NCBI GenBank assembly: GCA_011364965.1
Contig: RDOB01000001.1
Coordinates: forward strand, 32,001-96,000
Direction of reading: 5' to 3'
DNA: 64,000 nt
Source of the DNA: Candidatus Heimdallarchaeota archaeon
GTDB taxonomy: Archaea > Asgardarchaeota > Heimdallarchaeia > Hodarchaeales > Hodarchaeaceae
The translations under genes were made by a program, and so were the position numbers. Below the pieces are notes generated by a model. It did not search any database and was not told the DNA's origin. It was given only the letters and a program-made list of their open reading frames with translations. Of the stretch, positions 4,853 to 12,715 are shown in pieces; the stretch's first letter is position 1, and every line of letters starts with the position of its first letter.

Positions 4853-5347
4853 TTATTTGTTTCTAGAAATAAAACTACCAATTTCACAATAATTAAATTC
4901 AGTTTTTCCCTGTTTTCCTACAACTTGATAAATTTTAAAAGGCGAGATTTCATCAGAACCTATTTTAATTGGTTCTATGACTAAGGCTACCGAATAATTA
5001 TTGTGTAATTGAAAAGAATAAATGTGGGTCTCAATATCAGTATTTGAAAGAAATAATCCGTATCCTGGATGAGAATGCCACCAACCCACAACATAATCAT
5101 CTTCATGAAGTATTTTCTCAAAAGCTTGAAAATCCTCTTCTGCAAAAGAAACAGAGGCCTCATCTCCCTCGGTGACGAAAACCATTCTTGTTATCACAAG
5201 CTCATCATTCCTCCTCATTTTCCCTCCTAATAATCCAATTGCTTCTCTAGGTATTGATTTCTTTGATATATCTGAAATTTTCTTTAAGGTGGAATATGAT
5301 ATTGTAACAGATTTGACTTGTTGGGTGAGTATAACAGGTTTTGAAAT
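4853..5347 (-). CDS. JAB/MPN+ (Rpn11-like) metalloprotease, putative deconjugase; N-terminus extended beyond ATG 5218, probable ATT start at 5347
   Basis: JAMM motif GWWHSHPGYGLFLSNTD; in-frame upstream VTISYSTLKKI..PREAIGLLGG supplies the conserved catalytic Glu. Confidence 0.88.
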   Translation of the reverse strand: MSKPVILTQQVKSVTISYSTLKKISDISKKSIPREAIGLLGGKMRRNDELVITRMVFVTEGDEASVSFAEEDFQAFEKILHEDDYVVGWWHSHPGYGLFLSNTDIETHIYSFQLHNNYSVALVIEPIKIGSDEISPFKIYQVVGKQGKTEFNYCEIGSFISRNK

Positions 5348-6964: not shown

Positions 6965-7288
6965 ATGGCAAAAAGAGACGTTATCTGGGATTCTGAATCT
7001 CGATCAAAAACCAGTCCAGATTCTGGCATTGAAAAGATGATGAAAATCCGTTTTAAAGACCCACAACTCCCACCGGAACAAAATTTACGGGAGAAGTATA
7101 TCAATATTAATGGAACTGTTTTTCAAGCGATCACTGCTGCAAGAGATGCATTCAATATCCCTGAAGTAGTTCCCATTGCATTACTGTTTAAAGGTAGAAG
7201 GATGAATCCTTCCAATAGCCTTTCTTCTTATGGAATTGAGGAAAATGCAATTTTAATGATAGTTCCAGATCAGATCAAAGGTGGTTAA
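6965..7288 (+). CDS. Ubiquitin-like modifier with C-terminal GG and UFM1-like motifs
   Basis: Beta-grasp pattern LLFKGRRM..SLSSYGIEENAIL; terminal KGG-stop; directly upstream of E1. Confidence 0.9.
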   Translation: MAKRDVIWDSESRSKTSPDSGIEKMMKIRFKDPQLPPEQNLREKYININGTVFQAITAARDAFNIPEVVPIALLFKGRRMNPSNSLSSYGIEENAILMIVPDQIKGG

Positions 7289-7314: not shown

Positions 7315-8565
7315 ATGGATTCGGATATTCCTTCTTCAAGATTTGATAGACAGGAGCGCCTATCACTCTGGGATCAAAAATTAATTGAAAAAATAACGGT
7401 TTTAGTCGTTGGTGTTGGAGGTACAGGGAGTGAAGTATGTAAGAATTTATCTTTACTAGGGATTGGTAAATTGATTCTTGTAGATGTTGATTCTATAGAA
7501 TATTCCAATTTAAATCGCCAAATGCTTTTTAGCAAAGAAGATATCGGACAAAATAAAGCTGAAGTAGCTAAAGTAAGGATACTCCATCACTTTAATCCTG
7601 AATTAGAGGTAGAAGTATTTCCTTTTTATGTCCAAGAAATACCTGATAAAACTTTTGAATCGGTGGATGTCATTGCAGGATGCGTAGATAACTATTTAGC
7701 TAGACAATTTCTGAATTCAATAGCTATTGAACATCGAATTCCTTTAATAGATTCAGCAACTGATGGCTATTTAGGCCAAGTACAATCTATTATACCATTT
7801 CAAACTGCTTGCTTAGCATGTGATAATCCTCCTCCACCACAAGAAACTCAAGTTTTAATGGAACCATGTTCAATAGTGGGCGTTCCAAGATCCCGTGAAC
7901 ATTGTGCTTGGAAAGCTCTTTACGAATTTAATACATTATTCAATCGGAAACCAAATGAGACTGAAAAAGATCTGGAAAAATTAACTCAATTGGCCAACGA
8001 ATACACAGAAAGGTATAATTTTGGAAAATTTGAGAGAAAAGAATTATTGCAATTGATTATGTTTCATGTGCCAAGCCTTATCACGGTGAACGCTGTAACC
8101 AGTGGAATTCAAACTCAAGAGATTATAAAAACGATTTTTTCGATTAAACGGAGGGAGCTAAGAAAATCAGAAAGGTTAGCCTTGCAGCAATTAGAAACCT
8201 TAACAAGATTCAAAATTCCAAGTTTGTCCATTTATTCAGCATTAACAGGAACTCTAAATACATTTGATCTTGTTCAGGATCCAGAATGTACTGTATGCGG
8301 AAATATGTCCAATTTAACCCAAAAAATTGAAAAAATAAAGATAAATAAGAAAAATTCCTTGAAAACAATAATAAATGGTTTTTCAGAGAAGTTTAATAAG
8401 GAATTTATAGCTTTTAAAGGAAATTCGGTTCTACAAGAGGATAGATCATTAGAATCGTTATTGAGGGATGGAGATCGCATTACACTTAGTTCTAAAGAGG
8501 ATGAGCAAGAATTTAGAGTACGTATAACTTTTACTCCCCCAAGAAAACAAAGAAAGAAAGAATAG
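7315..8565 (+). CDS. Ubiquitin-like-protein activating enzyme E1 (ThiF family, UBA3-like)
   Basis: RFDRQ, GVGGTG, DVDSIEYSNLNRQ, TACLAC, catalytic-Cys region PCSIVGVPRSREHC, CTVC zinc knuckle, C-terminal extra domain. Confidence 0.93.
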   Translation: MDSDIPSSRFDRQERLSLWDQKLIEKITVLVVGVGGTGSEVCKNLSLLGIGKLILVDVDSIEYSNLNRQMLFSKEDIGQNKAEVAKVRILHHFNPELEVEVFPFYVQEIPDKTFESVDVIAGCVDNYLARQFLNSIAIEHRIPLIDSATDGYLGQVQSIIPFQTACLACDNPPPPQETQVLMEPCSIVGVPRSREHCAWKALYEFNTLFNRKPNETEKDLEKLTQLANEYTERYNFGKFERKELLQLIMFHVPSLITVNAVTSGIQTQEIIKTIFSIKRRELRKSERLALQQLETLTRFKIPSLSIYSALTGTLNTFDLVQDPECTVCGNMSNLTQKIEKIKINKKNSLKTIINGFSEKFNKEFIAFKGNSVLQEDRSLESLLRDGDRITLSSKEDEQEFRVRITFTPPRKQRKKE

Positions 8566-9079: not shown

Positions 9080-10828
9080 ATGCTTAAGCGGAAATTGAAA
9101 TCATGGTTGAAACTGGCTTCTGCTTCAAATGAACCTCTTACACTCCATGATTTCTCTGAAGCTAATATTGAAATTCTTGCAGATTTTTTAAGACATAAGA
9201 TTGGATCTAAGGAACTTAATGGAATTGTTACTCCTGATAATTCGTTTTATATACCAATGAAATATATAGACGCATTAATAACGAGTAGTTTAGAATCTAA
9301 TGGTACTATAGACATTTGTGATTTAATAGATGCTACCAATTTACCAGGAGAAATTTTAGAAAGCGTTATTCGTAGAAAAGTAAGCCAAATAGATGGATTC
9401 TTTGATGTAATAAATAGAAAATTCTTCACTAAAAAAGGCGCAAGACTAGAATTACTCAAATTGATCGGTAGTACTCTTTCTTTGGATTTAAATTATCTAT
9501 TGAATAGCCTTTATTGGACACAAGATTATCTTGAAGCAGTTTTAAATATGCTAACACAAAATGGCGAGTTTATAGGTTATATTGATCCTTTAAAACAGCG
9601 ATTATACAATTTCACGATTCTCAATTTCAGTTTAAATCAAGATTTTGATAGAAATCTCGAATCGATGAGAAAATTCATACAAACAAATTTTGATCTAAAT
9701 TCAGAGGTATCATTAAAAGATTTAGCAGGATTAACACGATTATCTGAAACTGAAATCAGAGATCTATTGAGAAAACATTGCAAAAATATCACTTTTTTGT
9801 TTTCCTCTGATTTCAAAAATATCTATAACGTATTAGAAATCTTTGGGTATGTATTAAGAGACATTCATGTTTATAATGAAATTCCTATTGAATTTTGGTT
9901 ACAAAGATTAGACATTGATAAAAACGATTTTATGACTTTCCTAAGGGTAATAAATCAGAGTTTGGGAGCTGAGCTTTCAGAAAAGGAATTAAAATCGAAC
10001 CCAATTGAAAATTGGTTCAATCAGGGTATAGATATCGAAGAATTAGCCCTGAAGCTACATTTGGAACCTTTACAACTGCTAACGGAGATCAAAAAATTCT
10101 CAGATCAACTAGGGTTGATTTTAATAACAGGGGAATTTAGAGATCCTTTTTTAATTAAAGGTATAGAGGAATTTGAGATTTTTTGCCAAGTTGATACATC
10201 TATTCATCACAATCCTCAATTATATTTTGAATGTCAAAATTGTCGACGAATAATGTGCTCAAATTGCCGTTCTTCAGGAAGCACACATGTCTGTCCGTTC
10301 TGTGGGAATATTTCAGCATTTATTATCGATCTTCCAAGGCATTGCCAAACCTGTGAGTTGAACTACACCCATTCATTTAATTTAGAGAGTACCGAAGAAT
10401 GTTATTTTTGTAAAAAAGGTCCCTTAAAATCTGGATGGATTGAAAAAAAGGAAATTTTGTACCCTGAAACAGAATTGGACCGAAAATTACTTGAATGGTT
10501 AAACACCGTAAGAAATGAAAGAATTCCTCTTCGTGAAATAATTTCGAACCTTGGAGCTCCTGATCGTGTAGTTATTGAACTACTAGAAACCCATATACTC
10601 TCTAGCAAGGTTAGTGGAAAGATTGATATTAAAGATCTAACTCTTAATAGGAAGGGAGAAAAAAAAGGTGTTTTATGTAGTATATGTGAAACTATACAAC
10701 CAGAGGGAAATGAGTATTATTGTAATTTCTGTAAAACCACTATTTGCATAAATTGCTACAATAAGATGAAATCCGTTGGAATGATTTCGTGCACGGAGTG
10801 TGGAAGCGAGTTGGTGAAATTTAACTAA
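9080..10828 (+). CDS. Winged-helix-repeat (UFL1/DDRGK1/PCI-like) protein with two RING-like zinc fingers; candidate E3 ligase
   Basis: Repeated WH units (LESNGTIDICDL..NLPGEILE; LEAVLNMLTQNGEFIGYID; SSKVSGKID); Cys clusters CQVD..CQNC..CSNC..CPFC, CQTC..CYFC and CSIC..CNFC..CINC..CTEC. Confidence 0.65.
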   Translation: MLKRKLKSWLKLASASNEPLTLHDFSEANIEILADFLRHKIGSKELNGIVTPDNSFYIPMKYIDALITSSLESNGTIDICDLIDATNLPGEILESVIRRKVSQIDGFFDVINRKFFTKKGARLELLKLIGSTLSLDLNYLLNSLYWTQDYLEAVLNMLTQNGEFIGYIDPLKQRLYNFTILNFSLNQDFDRNLESMRKFIQTNFDLNSEVSLKDLAGLTRLSETEIRDLLRKHCKNITFLFSSDFKNIYNVLEIFGYVLRDIHVYNEIPIEFWLQRLDIDKNDFMTFLRVINQSLGAELSEKELKSNPIENWFNQGIDIEELALKLHLEPLQLLTEIKKFSDQLGLILITGEFRDPFLIKGIEEFEIFCQVDTSIHHNPQLYFECQNCRRIMCSNCRSSGSTHVCPFCGNISAFIIDLPRHCQTCELNYTHSFNLESTEECYFCKKGPLKSGWIEKKEILYPETELDRKLLEWLNTVRNERIPLREIISNLGAPDRVVIELLETHILSSKVSGKIDIKDLTLNRKGEKKGVLCSICETIQPEGNEYYCNFCKTTICINCYNKMKSVGMISCTECGSELVKFN

Positions 10829-10832
10829 AATA

Positions 10833-11735
10833 TTACTCAGAGGTTTTAGATTTATATTGGGCAAGCTTTTGGGCATATTTATCCGATAATTCCTTATAAC
10901 TTTCTTCAGATAATTTCCCACTTAGAAACATCTCATCAGCTTGCTCCAACATATGTTCGTACTTAGAAATTTTAGCTGAAACGTCATCGAATGATTTTCG
11001 CTCCTCATCAAGTTCTCTTTGAGTTTCTAATACTTGTTTTTCAACCTCATATGCTAGTAGTGTTTGATATTCTTCAGGGACTTTAAAACCTCCAATTTCA
11101 AGACCCACTAATTCTAATCCCCAGCGAGATGTTTCTGGTGCCAGTTCGGATCTGGTCTGTATTGTTAAACTCCTTCTCTCCCTCAAAAGATCGGAAACGG
11201 TATAACGCGACATAATGTGTTTCACAGCTGCAATAATCGTTTGCTTTATCCAATTTCTTAACTCCTCACTTGTATAGTAGTGCTTATGTGAGACAACATT
11301 CATAATAAAGTTCCTTGGATTAACAACTCGTAATCTGGATATTCCATAGCATCCAATCATTATATTATCAATTGTATATACCCCAGGTGAACCCCACTTA
11401 ACTAGAAACTCTCCCTTGGTAATCCAAATGATTTCACCTCCAGGCCGTTTAGCTGTTTTGTCTAATTCATAAATTCCACTCCCAGCAACACCAACTAAGG
11501 CTCCTGATTGCAATAGGACAGCAGCTTCAAGCTCTTTAACGATAAATCCATCAAATTTTCGAAAACTATCGTACTCATCAGATTTTAATCTTGAAATAAG
11601 CGATTCTTGTCCGAATTCAGAGGAGAGAATAGTTTTTCCTTTAAACTTTTTCGTCCCGATATGCACTGTATCTCCAATTCGTTTGAATAAACCCCCAAAT
11701 TTTTCTGTTTCCGCCATTTGAGTTCCACCTACCAA
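10833..11735 (-). CDS. SPFH/band-7 domain protein with C-terminal coiled coil and SHOCT-like helix
   Basis: IVKELEAAVLLQSG..GIY, VKWG, WGLELVGLEIGGFKVPEE, GKLSEESY. Confidence 0.8.
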   Translation of the reverse strand: MVGGTQMAETEKFGGLFKRIGDTVHIGTKKFKGKTILSSEFGQESLISRLKSDEYDSFRKFDGFIVKELEAAVLLQSGALVGVAGSGIYELDKTAKRPGGEIIWITKGEFLVKWGSPGVYTIDNIMIGCYGISRLRVVNPRNFIMNVVSHKHYYTSEELRNWIKQTIIAAVKHIMSRYTVSDLLRERRSLTIQTRSELAPETSRWGLELVGLEIGGFKVPEEYQTLLAYEVEKQVLETQRELDEERKSFDDVSAKISKYEHMLEQADEMFLSGKLSEESYKELSDKYAQKLAQYKSKTSE

Positions 11736-12715
11736 TTATCGTCTCCATATATTCCTGGAAAGTAATACTGATCCCCTGTATCTAATGAGCTCACCTTTCG
11801 TGCGATTTTTTGATTTATCAAACTCTCCAACACTCTTGTTACTCTTTGGTGATCCCATTTTGTTTTGATCATGATTTCTTCAATTGTGACATAACCCTTG
11901 TTTACAGCTAAATTGAAGATCTTACTTGCATCATTAGTCAAAGAAACTGGTGTAAATTCTATTATTTTAACACCAGAACGCTTTGATATATCTTCAATTA
12001 GACCATCATCCTTTAAATTCTTACAAGATTTTTCTAAATCTTTAATTGAGAATTCCACATCTGGAACTTGGCTTTTCAACTTGGTGTATAAATTTGCAAG
12101 GGTAATATACCCACCTGAACTAGCTGGAAGTTTTTTACCCTGTTCGAGTATTAAATCCCCAAGAAATTCCTCGAATTTCCCTTTTCCAAATAATTTGGGC
12201 TTTTTACTTGCATCAAGCGCAGTTACAGTTAAAGAAAGTCCTTCTTTGCGAATTAACTCTTCCTCTAACTGCTTTATCCGCTTCTCATATTTTTTCTGTA
12301 AATCTTTAATGTTTTTTGTTGAAACTGAGGCACCATTGGCCAGTTTTTGCTGAACTTGAATGATTTCATCAAGCTGTTGGATTTGTTCATTAAGTTCCCG
12401 GAGTTCCCCCCGAACATCCAAATTTTCTTCTCCAAAATCAATAGATTCTGATAACTGAATACACTGGTCTGCTATTCTATCACAGATGATTGATGATAGT
12501 AATTGAGCAACACGGATTTCACCACTCATTTTTAAATTAGATTTGGTATTATCTGGATGAATAATATAATCAGGAATGGATTCACTTGCGTAACGGATCT
12601 CATCAAATTTTGATATAATCTTTAAGATTAGATCAGATGCACTCCTAGCATTAGAAGAAATACTGCTATTTAATGTTATTAATGAGTCACTAGCCTTAAG
12701 AAAGAATTCTTTCAT
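11729..12715 (-). CDS. ESCRT-II Vps22/Vps36 (EAP30)-like tandem winged-helix protein with N-terminal coiled coil
   Basis: GGYITLANL, TPVSLTNDASKIFNLA..KGYVT, KWDHQRVTRVLESL, QYYFPG match the Vps22/SNF8 C-terminal consensus. Confidence 0.85.
   Translation of the reverse strand: MKEFFLKASDSLITLNSSISSNARSASDLILKIISKFDEIRYASESIPDYIIHPDNTKSNLKMSGEIRVAQLLSSIICDRIADQCIQLSESIDFGEENLDVRGELRELNEQIQQLDEIIQVQQKLANGASVSTKNIKDLQKKYEKRIKQLEEELIRKEGLSLTVTALDASKKPKLFGKGKFEEFLGDLILEQGKKLPASSGGYITLANLYTKLKSQVPDVEFSIKDLEKSCKNLKDDGLIEDISKRSGVKIIEFTPVSLTNDASKIFNLAVNKGYVTIEEIMIKTKWDHQRVTRVLESLINQKIARKVSSLDTGDQYYFPGIYGDDNW

Follow-up and report, generated by a model that had tools for sequence, protein, structure and literature searches.

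The window analysed here is a stretch of 64,000 nucleotides from Candidatus Heimdallarchaeota archaeon, a member of the Hodarchaeales (GenBank assembly GCA_011364965.1, contig RDOB01000001.1, positions 32,001 to 96,000; G+C ~34%). Its plus-strand open reading frame (ORF) at 9080-10828 encodes a protein of 582 amino acids, P0001, which is a distant relative of the eukaryotic ligase UFL1 and which carries, behind a UFL1-like array of winged-helix (WH) domains, two RING-like zinc fingers. Across lineages, the gene is linked to genes of a ubiquitin-type conjugation system, namely an activating enzyme (E1), a conjugating enzyme (E2), a ubiquitin-like (Ubl) tag and a JAB protease, and to a pair of genes for SPFH and Vps22/36-like proteins. 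We regard P0001 as a candidate ligase (E3) of this adjoining system, a prediction that we hold with moderate confidence.

Architecture of P0001

The AlphaFold2 model of P0001, built on 55 homologues, is confident (mean pLDDT 87.7, pTM 0.75). According to this model and its DSSP assignment, the chain starts with an N-terminal helix and an incomplete WH in which helix 2 is missing. Five complete WH units follow (residues 60-117, 118-177, 186-250, 251-306 and 309-362), and then finger 1, the zinc ribbon, the PCI-type WH and finger 2, both fingers being RING-like. The two Cys-rich regions cover 366-446 and, beyond the WH at 463-526, 530-582; the latter contains a helix (557-565).

The first 59 residues correspond to the N-terminal helix and partial WH of UFL1. 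The first WH comprises a strand (20-21), a helix (30-42) and a hairpin (48-59), and W9, P19, G48 and P59 are invariant in the family alignment. Judging from the order of the secondary-structure elements in DSSP and a pLDDT of 81-91, the N-terminal helix appears to supply helix 1 of this first WH in cis. If the first WH is completed in this way, a DDRGK1-like partner would be dispensable.

The WH array is related to UFL1

The initial annotation had proposed a UFL1-type scaffold, and both sequence and fold bear this out. The Pfam family E3_UFM1_ligase (PF09743) matches residues 67-168 of P0001 (E 3.7e-5) at positions 121-225 of the 272 in its profile; the score of 24.0 bits lies just above the cut-off of 23.2. 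At E ≤ 0.01, the model matches 25 of the 55 family members. Among the sequences of 177,635 solved chains, the four best matches of the P0001 family profile were UFL1 (8b9x, 8qfc, 8ohd and 8c0d; E 1.6e-6 to 7e-6), and no PCI protein was found among the N-terminal matches. HMMER aligned profile residues 64-168 with human UFL1 123-233, and profile residues 22-103 with UFL1 20-102. These alignments reproduce the parallels to the N-terminal WH motifs of UFL1 that had been noticed by eye: they pair a ..G.vdi.dl..t.lpG..l.....idGffd..rk stretch and a YW..d.le.iL.l....g.f.G stretch of the family with segments of UFL1.

The five best Foldseek matches of the model in the PDB were likewise UFL1 (E 2.2e-11 to 9.2e-8, up to 372 columns), followed by SelB (2.6e-4) and by subunits of the COP9 signalosome (CSN) and the proteasome lid (~1e-2). 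With VIA, UFL1 scored Z 10.6 (8b9x) and Z 10.1 (8ohd_A, 281 residues aligned), and model residues 27-161 were superposed in register on residues 26-163 of UFL1 8c0d_D (Z 9.2, root-mean-square deviation (rmsd) 4.1 Å). Identity to UFL1 in the Foldseek alignments is only 14-16%. In sequence as in fold, UFL1 ranks ahead of all PCI and other WH proteins. The array is therefore not just a generic PCI or WH assembly but specifically UFL1-like, and P0001 is a distant relative of eukaryotic UFL1.

The kinship extends to other Asgard proteins. In an exhaustive profile search of 1.84 billion representative proteins, P0121 and P0136 matched the P0001 family profile at E 6.2e-5 and 2.1e-4 over residues 8-172 and 8-143, respectively; both also match PF09743 (4.1e-14 and 7.8e-10). 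A pairwise BLASTP comparison of P0001 with P0121 gave only E 3e-4 over 98 residues, and recognition of the kinship needed profile searches.

Two RING-like fingers and a zinc ribbon

The Cys clusters and the zinc ribbon that the initial annotation placed in the C-terminal half are present, and the ligands of all three units are invariant, C536 of finger 2 nearly so. In finger 1 the ligands are C369, D372, C385, C388, C393, C396, C405 and C408, all of them invariant, with the spacing C-x2-D-x12-C-x2-C-x4-C-x2-C-x8-C-x2-C. Several distant relatives have C-Q-x-C where the Hodarchaeales finger 1 has C-Q-V-D, that is, a Cys at the position of D372. The four ligands of the ribbon (C422, C425, C441 and C444) are the only Cys invariant in all six divergent family members, and the ribbon aligns with the zinc-ribbon region of PolD DP2 (E 0.0025). 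Finger 2 is C533-x2-C536-x11-C548-x2-C551-x4-C556-x2-C559-x11-C571-x2-C574, with seven invariant ligands, and in the model the helix at 557-565 comes after ligand 6.

A broad profile of finger 2, made from 34 sequences of diverse proteins, matched solved RINGs over the full length and at all eight ligand positions: CesA (1weo, 1.6e-5), BRE1 (4.1e-5), TRIM32 (4.1e-5) and Ring1B (2.6e-4). FYVE fingers among the solved chains gave partial matches only. In Pfam, RING families were the class most often matched by the 34 sequences. Finger 1 showed weak profile matches to the RINGs of TRIM32, CesA and p44. The families of the two fingers are homologous to each other at all ligand positions (hhalign probability 98.4%, E 5.8e-15). 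With Foldseek, the C-terminal half had no match at E ≤ 0.001; the best was the WH-RING protein Nse1 (E 2.7e-3, probability 0.98, 157 columns, TM 0.22). A wide VIA search with the same half was filled by the WH at model residues 99-165, and the fingers were barely covered.

Judged from these profiles and ligand patterns, P0001 has two homologous fingers that we assign to the RING superfamily. In both cases a WH stands ahead of the finger, and behind finger 1 comes a one-zinc ribbon. Only indirect signs, namely the helix directly behind ligand 6 and the homology to cross-brace families, point to cross-brace zinc binding (pairs 1+3 and pairs 2+4). The position two residues after ligand 1 is always hydrophobic (I535 in P0001; I, V or L in the family), M563 lies on the helix of finger 2, four residues after ligand 6, and most family members have CP-x-C at ligands 7-8, where P0001 has C-T-E-C. 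I535, M563 and the positions around ligands 7-8 would correspond to the sites at which the RING touches the E2 in RING-E2 complexes. The finger family also has motifs of its own, with F-x-C-Q preceding ligand 2, R-x-x-C at ligand 5 and V-G preceding ligand 7; at ligand 2, Cys exchanges with Asp.

The PCI-type WH and the question of DDRGK1

The WH between the ribbon and finger 2 (WH6) is PCI-like, as had been suggested earlier. It superposes on CSN2 (9efq_B) with a VIA Z of 10.7 and an rmsd of 1.8 Å over 63 residues, and Pfam PCI (PF01399) is found in 40 of the 55 family members (best E 1.6e-8); P0001 itself scores 19 bits against a cut-off of 22. The model has no helical repeat of the tetratricopeptide type ahead of WH6. 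Compared with the WH of DDRGK1, WH6 scored lower in VIA (Z 8.0-8.4), and in the profile search the two matched only weakly (E 11 for a single stretch).

The likeness to a DDRGK1 hairpin that the initial annotation had pointed out turned out to be unspecific. In the alignment of the family profile with UFL1, LNGIVTPDNSFYIP corresponds to UFL1's own first wing hairpin, LEVVHTLDGKEYITP, and the wing motif G-x-[IF]-D...[FY] is repeated in every WH of P0001. The DDRGK family (PF09756) had no match in P0001 at E ≤ 1 and none in the host genome, which is 87% complete, at E ≤ 0.1. We therefore rejected the reading of this hairpin as DDRGK1 and regard it as a generic WH wing.

Distribution and gene neighbourhood

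A word-indexed search of 5.8 billion proteins retrieved ~65 clusters (at 90% identity) of P0001 homologues that are 38-52% identical to it. Nearly all are 582-591 amino acids long and carry the names Hodarchaeales or Heimdallarchaeota. The start codon of P0001 is right, because these homologues share its N-terminus. The ORFs on the opposite strand at 9247-9459 and 10673-10921 were treated as shadows of the conserved plus-strand gene. Homologues of the proteins of the window carry names of Hodarchaeales, Heimdallarchaeota or Promethearchaeota. In a sample of 151 genomes of the phylum, full-length orthologues were found in all six sampled genomes of the window's own family and in the window's genome, and only there; outside this family there was one weak partial match. 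The search of 1.84 billion representatives added P0071 (27% identity) and P0073 (26%) as more distant full-length relatives, together with many shorter proteins that have a single P0001 module in common.

Genomes with P0001 orthologues contain further proteins with a WH-finger module. In the host genome, this module of a WH and a C4C4 finger occurs in two more open frames (C11:311998-312342, 775 amino acids, E 6e-11; C9:366983-367150, 562 amino acids, E 9e-9), and the finger family is thus expanded in this genome.

The genes around P0001 are those of a ubiquitin-type system (Table 1). As the initial annotation had stated, the neighbouring E2 is canonical: H81, N83 and C98 are invariant in 26 homologues and P82 is nearly so. 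Neither UFM1 (PF03671) nor UFC1 (PF08694) had a match in the host genome. We therefore rejected a reading of the cluster as UFMylation for this genome and consider the conjugation system to be of the ubiquitin type, with the caveat that the genome is 87% complete.

Table 1. Position of P0001, its domains and the neighbouring genes in the window.
Feature	Residues	Position	Strand	Basis
UFL1-like WH scaffold gene with two RING-like fingers	582 amino acids	9080..10828 (stop codon included)	+	ORF and translation
N-terminal helix (2-15) and first WH without helix 2	1-59	9080..9256	+	DSSP, profile alignment, VIA
WH1 and WH2, the stretch most like UFL1	60-177	9257..9610	+	Pfam PF09743, profile alignment
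WH3, WH4 and WH5	186-362	9635..10165	+	DSSP; Foldseek against UFL1 8ohd_A, 366 columns; VIA 8ohd_A
RING-like finger 1	366-412	10175..10315	+	Invariant columns; hhalign against finger 2 family
Single-zinc ribbon	419-446	10334..10417	+	C422, C425, C441, C444
PCI-type WH (WH6)	463-526	10466..10657	+	VIA, Pfam PCI
C4C4 RING-like finger 2	530-582	10667..10825	+	Broad finger profile against solved RINGs; DSSP
Canonical E2, UBC fold, HPN motif, catalytic C98		5363..5905	-	Pfam UQ_con 5.1e-24; homologues; synteny
Ubiquitin-like tag, natural C-terminus GG		6965..7288	+	Translation; Pfam Rad60-SLD 2e-6, ubiquitin 5.4e-5
ThiF-type E1		7315..8565	+	Pfam ThiF 8.5e-54; NCBIfam Ube1 9.3e-32
JAB/MPN protease	121 amino acids as listed	4853..5218	-	Pfam JAB 9.4e-8
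SPFH/Band-7 gene (10833-11735) and Vps22/36-like (EAP30) gene (11729-12715), convergent on the E3 gene		10833..12715	-	Pfam Band_7 7.1e-16, EAP30 3.1e-11
P0002, N-terminal CxxC...CxxC, between E2 and Ubl genes	266 amino acids	6140-6940	+	
Zinc-ribbon protein with basic tail, divergent from the E3 gene	108 amino acids	8580-8906	-	

The gene order around the E3 gene is identical in two other Hodarchaeales genomes, including the linkage to the SPFH and EAP30 genes. More distant relatives retain parts of this arrangement. The gene of P0071 adjoins JAB, E2 and E1. On a contig whose P0079 gene is labelled Thorarchaeota by NCBI (L005 1653-5242), two divergently oriented paralogues lie beside JAB, E2 and a 92-residue Ubl; one has 618 residues and the full architecture (hhalign E 9.6e-60), and the other, P0079, has 548 residues and lacks finger 2. 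At the locus of P0073 (L007 6124-9767), EAP30, SPFH and E3 form a co-directional run, with the start of the E3 gene overlapping the end of the SPFH gene. Because the SPFH/Vps22 pair is convergent on the E3 gene in the window and co-directional with it at P0073, this linkage was kept through rearrangement. Linkage to E1, E2, Ubl and JAB and linkage to the SPFH and Vps22/36-like pair are both observed across lineages.

Other genes of the neighbourhood deserve brief mention. The JAB ORF has 121 residues from its ATG, compared to 188 and 194 residues in the orthologues at two syntenic Hodarchaeales loci (L004 and L003), and 145 nucleotides separate it from the stop codon of the E2 gene; the true start probably lies upstream, at a non-standard start codon or by another route. 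P0002, a conserved Zn protein, had no match in Pfam or NCBIfam and no usable match in the Atlas; a counterpart of 261-262 residues stands at the same place in other Hodarchaeales. Counterparts of the 108-residue zinc-ribbon protein are found at the same place in other Hodarchaeales (105-110 residues) and adjoining P0071 (104 residues). Upstream, the window contains two Arf-family GTPases and a threonyl-tRNA synthetase.

P0001 as a candidate E3 ligase

If P0001 is the E3 of this cluster, the GG-ended tag would be activated by the ThiF-type E1 and then transferred to the HPN-type E2, at C98. Docking of the tag-loaded E2 via the usual RING surface would fall to finger 2, perhaps with the aid of finger 1. 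The rigid WH array would hold the substrate or position the enzyme, plausibly on SPFH/ESCRT-II-like membrane assemblies, and the JAB protease would reverse the mark. The linkage to SPFH and ESCRT-II-like genes hints at such membrane assemblies as the site of action.

The initial annotation had also proposed RING-type E2 activation by P0001, in keeping with the neighbouring canonical E2. Co-folding of the full-length protein with this E2 gave an ipSAE of 0.42 (runs 0.32, 0.45 and 0.42) against 0.00 for the best control, with at least 50% of the contacts agreeing between runs and a partner pLDDT of at least 78. The calibration comprised 80 solved complexes, 58 of which reached the mark, and 110 mismatched pairs, of which 2 did; at scores of up to 0.60, however, just 7 of the 80 solved complexes reached it, together with both of the passing mismatches. 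The support that the co-fold lends to the pairing is weak, and it gives no interface. RING-E2 pairs may also pass such a test through memory of solved structures.

Several results weigh against the prediction of a RING-type ligase on a UFL1-type scaffold. For the scaffold, the margin of PF09743 over its cut-off is only 0.8 bits, 30 of the 55 family members fall short of E 0.01 with this model, and the register of the WH repeats relative to UFL1 is ambiguous, with both in-register and one-repeat-shifted alignments found. For the fingers, all 34 members of the finger family score below the curated cut-off with every RING model of Pfam, and the Siva, B-box, FYVE, C1 and double-zinc-ribbon models of Pfam match the fingers about as well as RING does. 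Taken by itself, the spacing of the ligands is also compatible with LIM-like binding in sequential order. Finger 1 has an Asp at ligand 2 and just 8 residues between ligands 6 and 7, and may therefore bind no E2. In finger 2, the last ligand is followed by a Gly (consensus C-G-G-x-L). The residue at this position of a RING, the so-called linchpin, is usually Arg, Lys or Asn.

A rather unlikely alternative is that P0001 is a non-catalytic scaffold or adaptor, which assembles the JAB, SPFH and Vps22/36-like proteins or reads ubiquitin-type marks and does not stimulate the E2. All three would be partners of the WH or MPN type, for which the CSN, the proteasome lid and ESCRT-II offer precedents, and the gene is linked with JAB and the EAP30/SPFH pair in several lineages. 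Moreover, the nearest structural matches of WH6 are the PCI WHs of CSN2 and Rpn subunits (VIA Z 10.7-10.1), ESCRT-II chains are among the Foldseek matches (3cuq_A, 9.4e-3), and the sub-threshold Pfam scores of the fingers fit such a role. Yet the finger 2 profile matches bona fide E3 RINGs first and over its own full length, and the nearest relative of the array, UFL1, is itself an E3. In addition, the Pfam-scanned genes of the window include no other E3 candidate despite the presence of E1, E2, tag and protease, P0002 being without assignment. Should the fingers be inactive, P0001 would still be a conserved adaptor between archaeal ubiquitin and ESCRT-type machineries.

Alternatively, P0001 might be an E3 in the manner of UFL1, in which the N-terminal helix and first WHs bind and activate the E2, and the fingers serve only substrate or ubiquitin binding or stability. 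In UFL1, the N-terminal helix, composite WH and WH1 are enough for E2 binding and discharge (PMC9627666, PMC10702826). P0001 keeps the first WH units and an N-terminal helix in which W9 is invariant and K5 nearly invariant, and the missing linchpin-type residue of finger 2 would also be in line with this explanation. However, in no search was the N-terminal helix of P0001 aligned with that of UFL1. In the model it resembles a built-in helix 1 of the first WH more than a free-standing arm, by the DSSP order and pLDDT mentioned above. Furthermore, the UFL1 helix binds UFC1, an atypical E2, whereas the E2 of the cluster is of the canonical HPN type. We consider this explanation improbable.

That P0001 is instead a nucleic-acid-binding regulator, built of multiple WHs and zinc fingers like SelB, TFIIIC tauB or Fur-type proteins, seems very improbable. 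SelB WH repeats (2.6e-4) and TFIIIC tauB (4.1e-4) do come after UFL1 in Foldseek, and Fur/Zur proteins are among the weak matches of the C-terminal half, but SelB and tauB trail UFL1 there by 4 to 7 orders of magnitude. The conserved linkage is to ubiquitin-system and membrane genes and not to a regulon, and PCI-type WH domains are protein-binding (PMC9627666).

Finally, a RING-between-RING (RBR)-like ligase, with finger 1, ribbon and finger 2 mimicking RING1, in-between-RING (IBR) and RING2 and a thioester on a finger Cys, has the module order as its sole support and is hardly credible: the invariant Cys are all zinc ligands (4 + 4 + 4 + 4 + 4, D372 replacing one), so that no conserved Cys is left for catalysis and we rejected this reading; the ribbon has one zinc site against two in an IBR, a WH separates the ribbon from finger 2, the fingers are mutually homologous, unlike RING1 and Rcat, and the best profile matches include no RBR protein except the RING1 of RNF31 (E 0.1-4).

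Significance for the origin of UFL1

UFL1 is an odd E3 that has no RING, HECT or RBR module, and the manner in which it activates its E2 is still being worked out. Hodarchaeales are an Asgard lineage that recent phylogenomic work places near the eukaryotic root. P0001 may still be close to what UFL1 was ancestrally: an E3 with RINGs on a single chain that served a ubiquitin-type cascade at membrane or ESCRT-II/SPFH assemblies in archaeal relatives of the eukaryotes. Later, on the eukaryotic line, the fingers would have been lost, the first WH split with DDRGK1, and the scaffold taken over by UFM1 and UFC1. We think this scenario unlikely as it stands, but if true it would explain why the UFL1 ligase has no recognisable catalytic module. 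In any case, the P0001 cluster offers a clonable system for the role of the WH scaffold before UFMylation. It raises the question whether E2 activation is a joint task of WH scaffold and RING, and, in view of the linkage to SPFH and ESCRT-II-like genes, what the archaeal targets of the mark are.

Comparison with known systems

According to the published plan, UFL1 consists of an N-terminal helix, a partial WH and five WH domains (PMC9627666; PMC10702826). P0001 shares the N-terminal helix, the incomplete first WH, the five PCI-like WHs and the arrangement of helix 1 of the repeats in a row (UFL1 plan: PMC9627666). The two proteins differ in their C-terminal parts. UFL1 has no zinc finger; its C-terminal region after WH5 is helical and binds CDK5RAP3 and the ribosome. 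In P0001, by contrast, residues 366-582 form finger, ribbon, WH and finger. The first WH of UFL1 is completed in trans by DDRGK1/UFBP1, whereas the host genome of P0001 has no DDRGK match. UFL1 works with UFM1, UFC1 and UBA5, whereas the neighbours of P0001 are of the ubiquitin type.

UFL1-like proteins of Asgard archaea are not new as such. IPR018611, the InterPro entry of UFL1, serves as the standard Asgard 'E3' marker (PMC9192718), and Asgard fusions of UFL1 domains with Vps28/Vps23 and adaptin-like domains have been described (bioRxiv 10.1101/2020.10.19.343400). According to published work, both UFL1 and DDRGK1 arose in Asgard archaea and are older than UFM1, and they may have had an earlier function (PMC10183829). 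These Asgard IPR018611 proteins have a WH array of the same type as P0001 and also occur in ubiquitin and ESCRT contexts. In contrast to P0001, P0121 and P0136 match PF09743 far more strongly, and a two-finger C-terminal half was present in none of the Asgard IPR018611 proteins examined. None of the papers searched describes a UFL1-like array joined to RING-type fingers.

Other Asgard proteins show further arrangements of these modules. P0121 (787 residues, from a JGI metagenome) combines DDRGK (2.4e-11), UFL1 (4.1e-14) and VPS28 (8.5e-7) in a single chain with a Cys-rich N-terminus, and resembles the DDRGK1-UFL1 fusion engineered for crystallography (8b9x). P0076 (L006 121-1779) has a hydrophobic, transmembrane-looking N-terminal extension and lacks finger 1, with ribbon, WH6 and finger 2 retained. 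Such a putative membrane anchor, borne by a UFL1-like chain, recalls the one that DDRGK1 contributes in eukaryotes. In the host genome itself, a HEAT-repeat protein of 794 residues (L002 334-2718; contig C11, 156949-159333) gives a weak second match to PF09743 (15.5 bits). It may be of the combined adaptin-like and UFL1-like type described for Asgard archaea; it had no significant BLASTP match to P0136.

The fingers have their closest parallels in the C4C4 RINGs of CNOT4 (1e4u/1ur6), CesA (1weo) and TFIIH p44, which have eight Cys ligands and a helix after ligand 6; the spacing of the P0001 fingers is near that of CNOT4. However, NOT4 scores just E 0.027-0.2 with the finger profile; p44 is also among the matches. 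Nse1, a subunit of SMC5/6 (PDB 7dg2, 5hvq), likewise has a WH directly followed by a RING-type finger in one chain. It differs from P0001 in having two WHs and one finger, a MAGE partner and a role at chromatin, and it shows no match to P0001 at the sequence level.

As a gene cluster, the system resembles those of Caldiarchaeum subterraneum (PMC5654768) and Helarchaeia (bioRxiv 10.1101/2023.07.25.550441), in which Ubl, E1, E2, a JAB/Rpn11-type protease and a RING-type E3 are compactly encoded and the cascades are active in vitro. The E3s of these systems are small, RING-only proteins, whereas P0001 has a UFL1-like WH array of 360 residues and two fingers. UFL1-domain proteins of Asgard archaea were known before; what appears to be new, judging from the papers searched, is the presence of RING-like fingers on a UFL1-like array.

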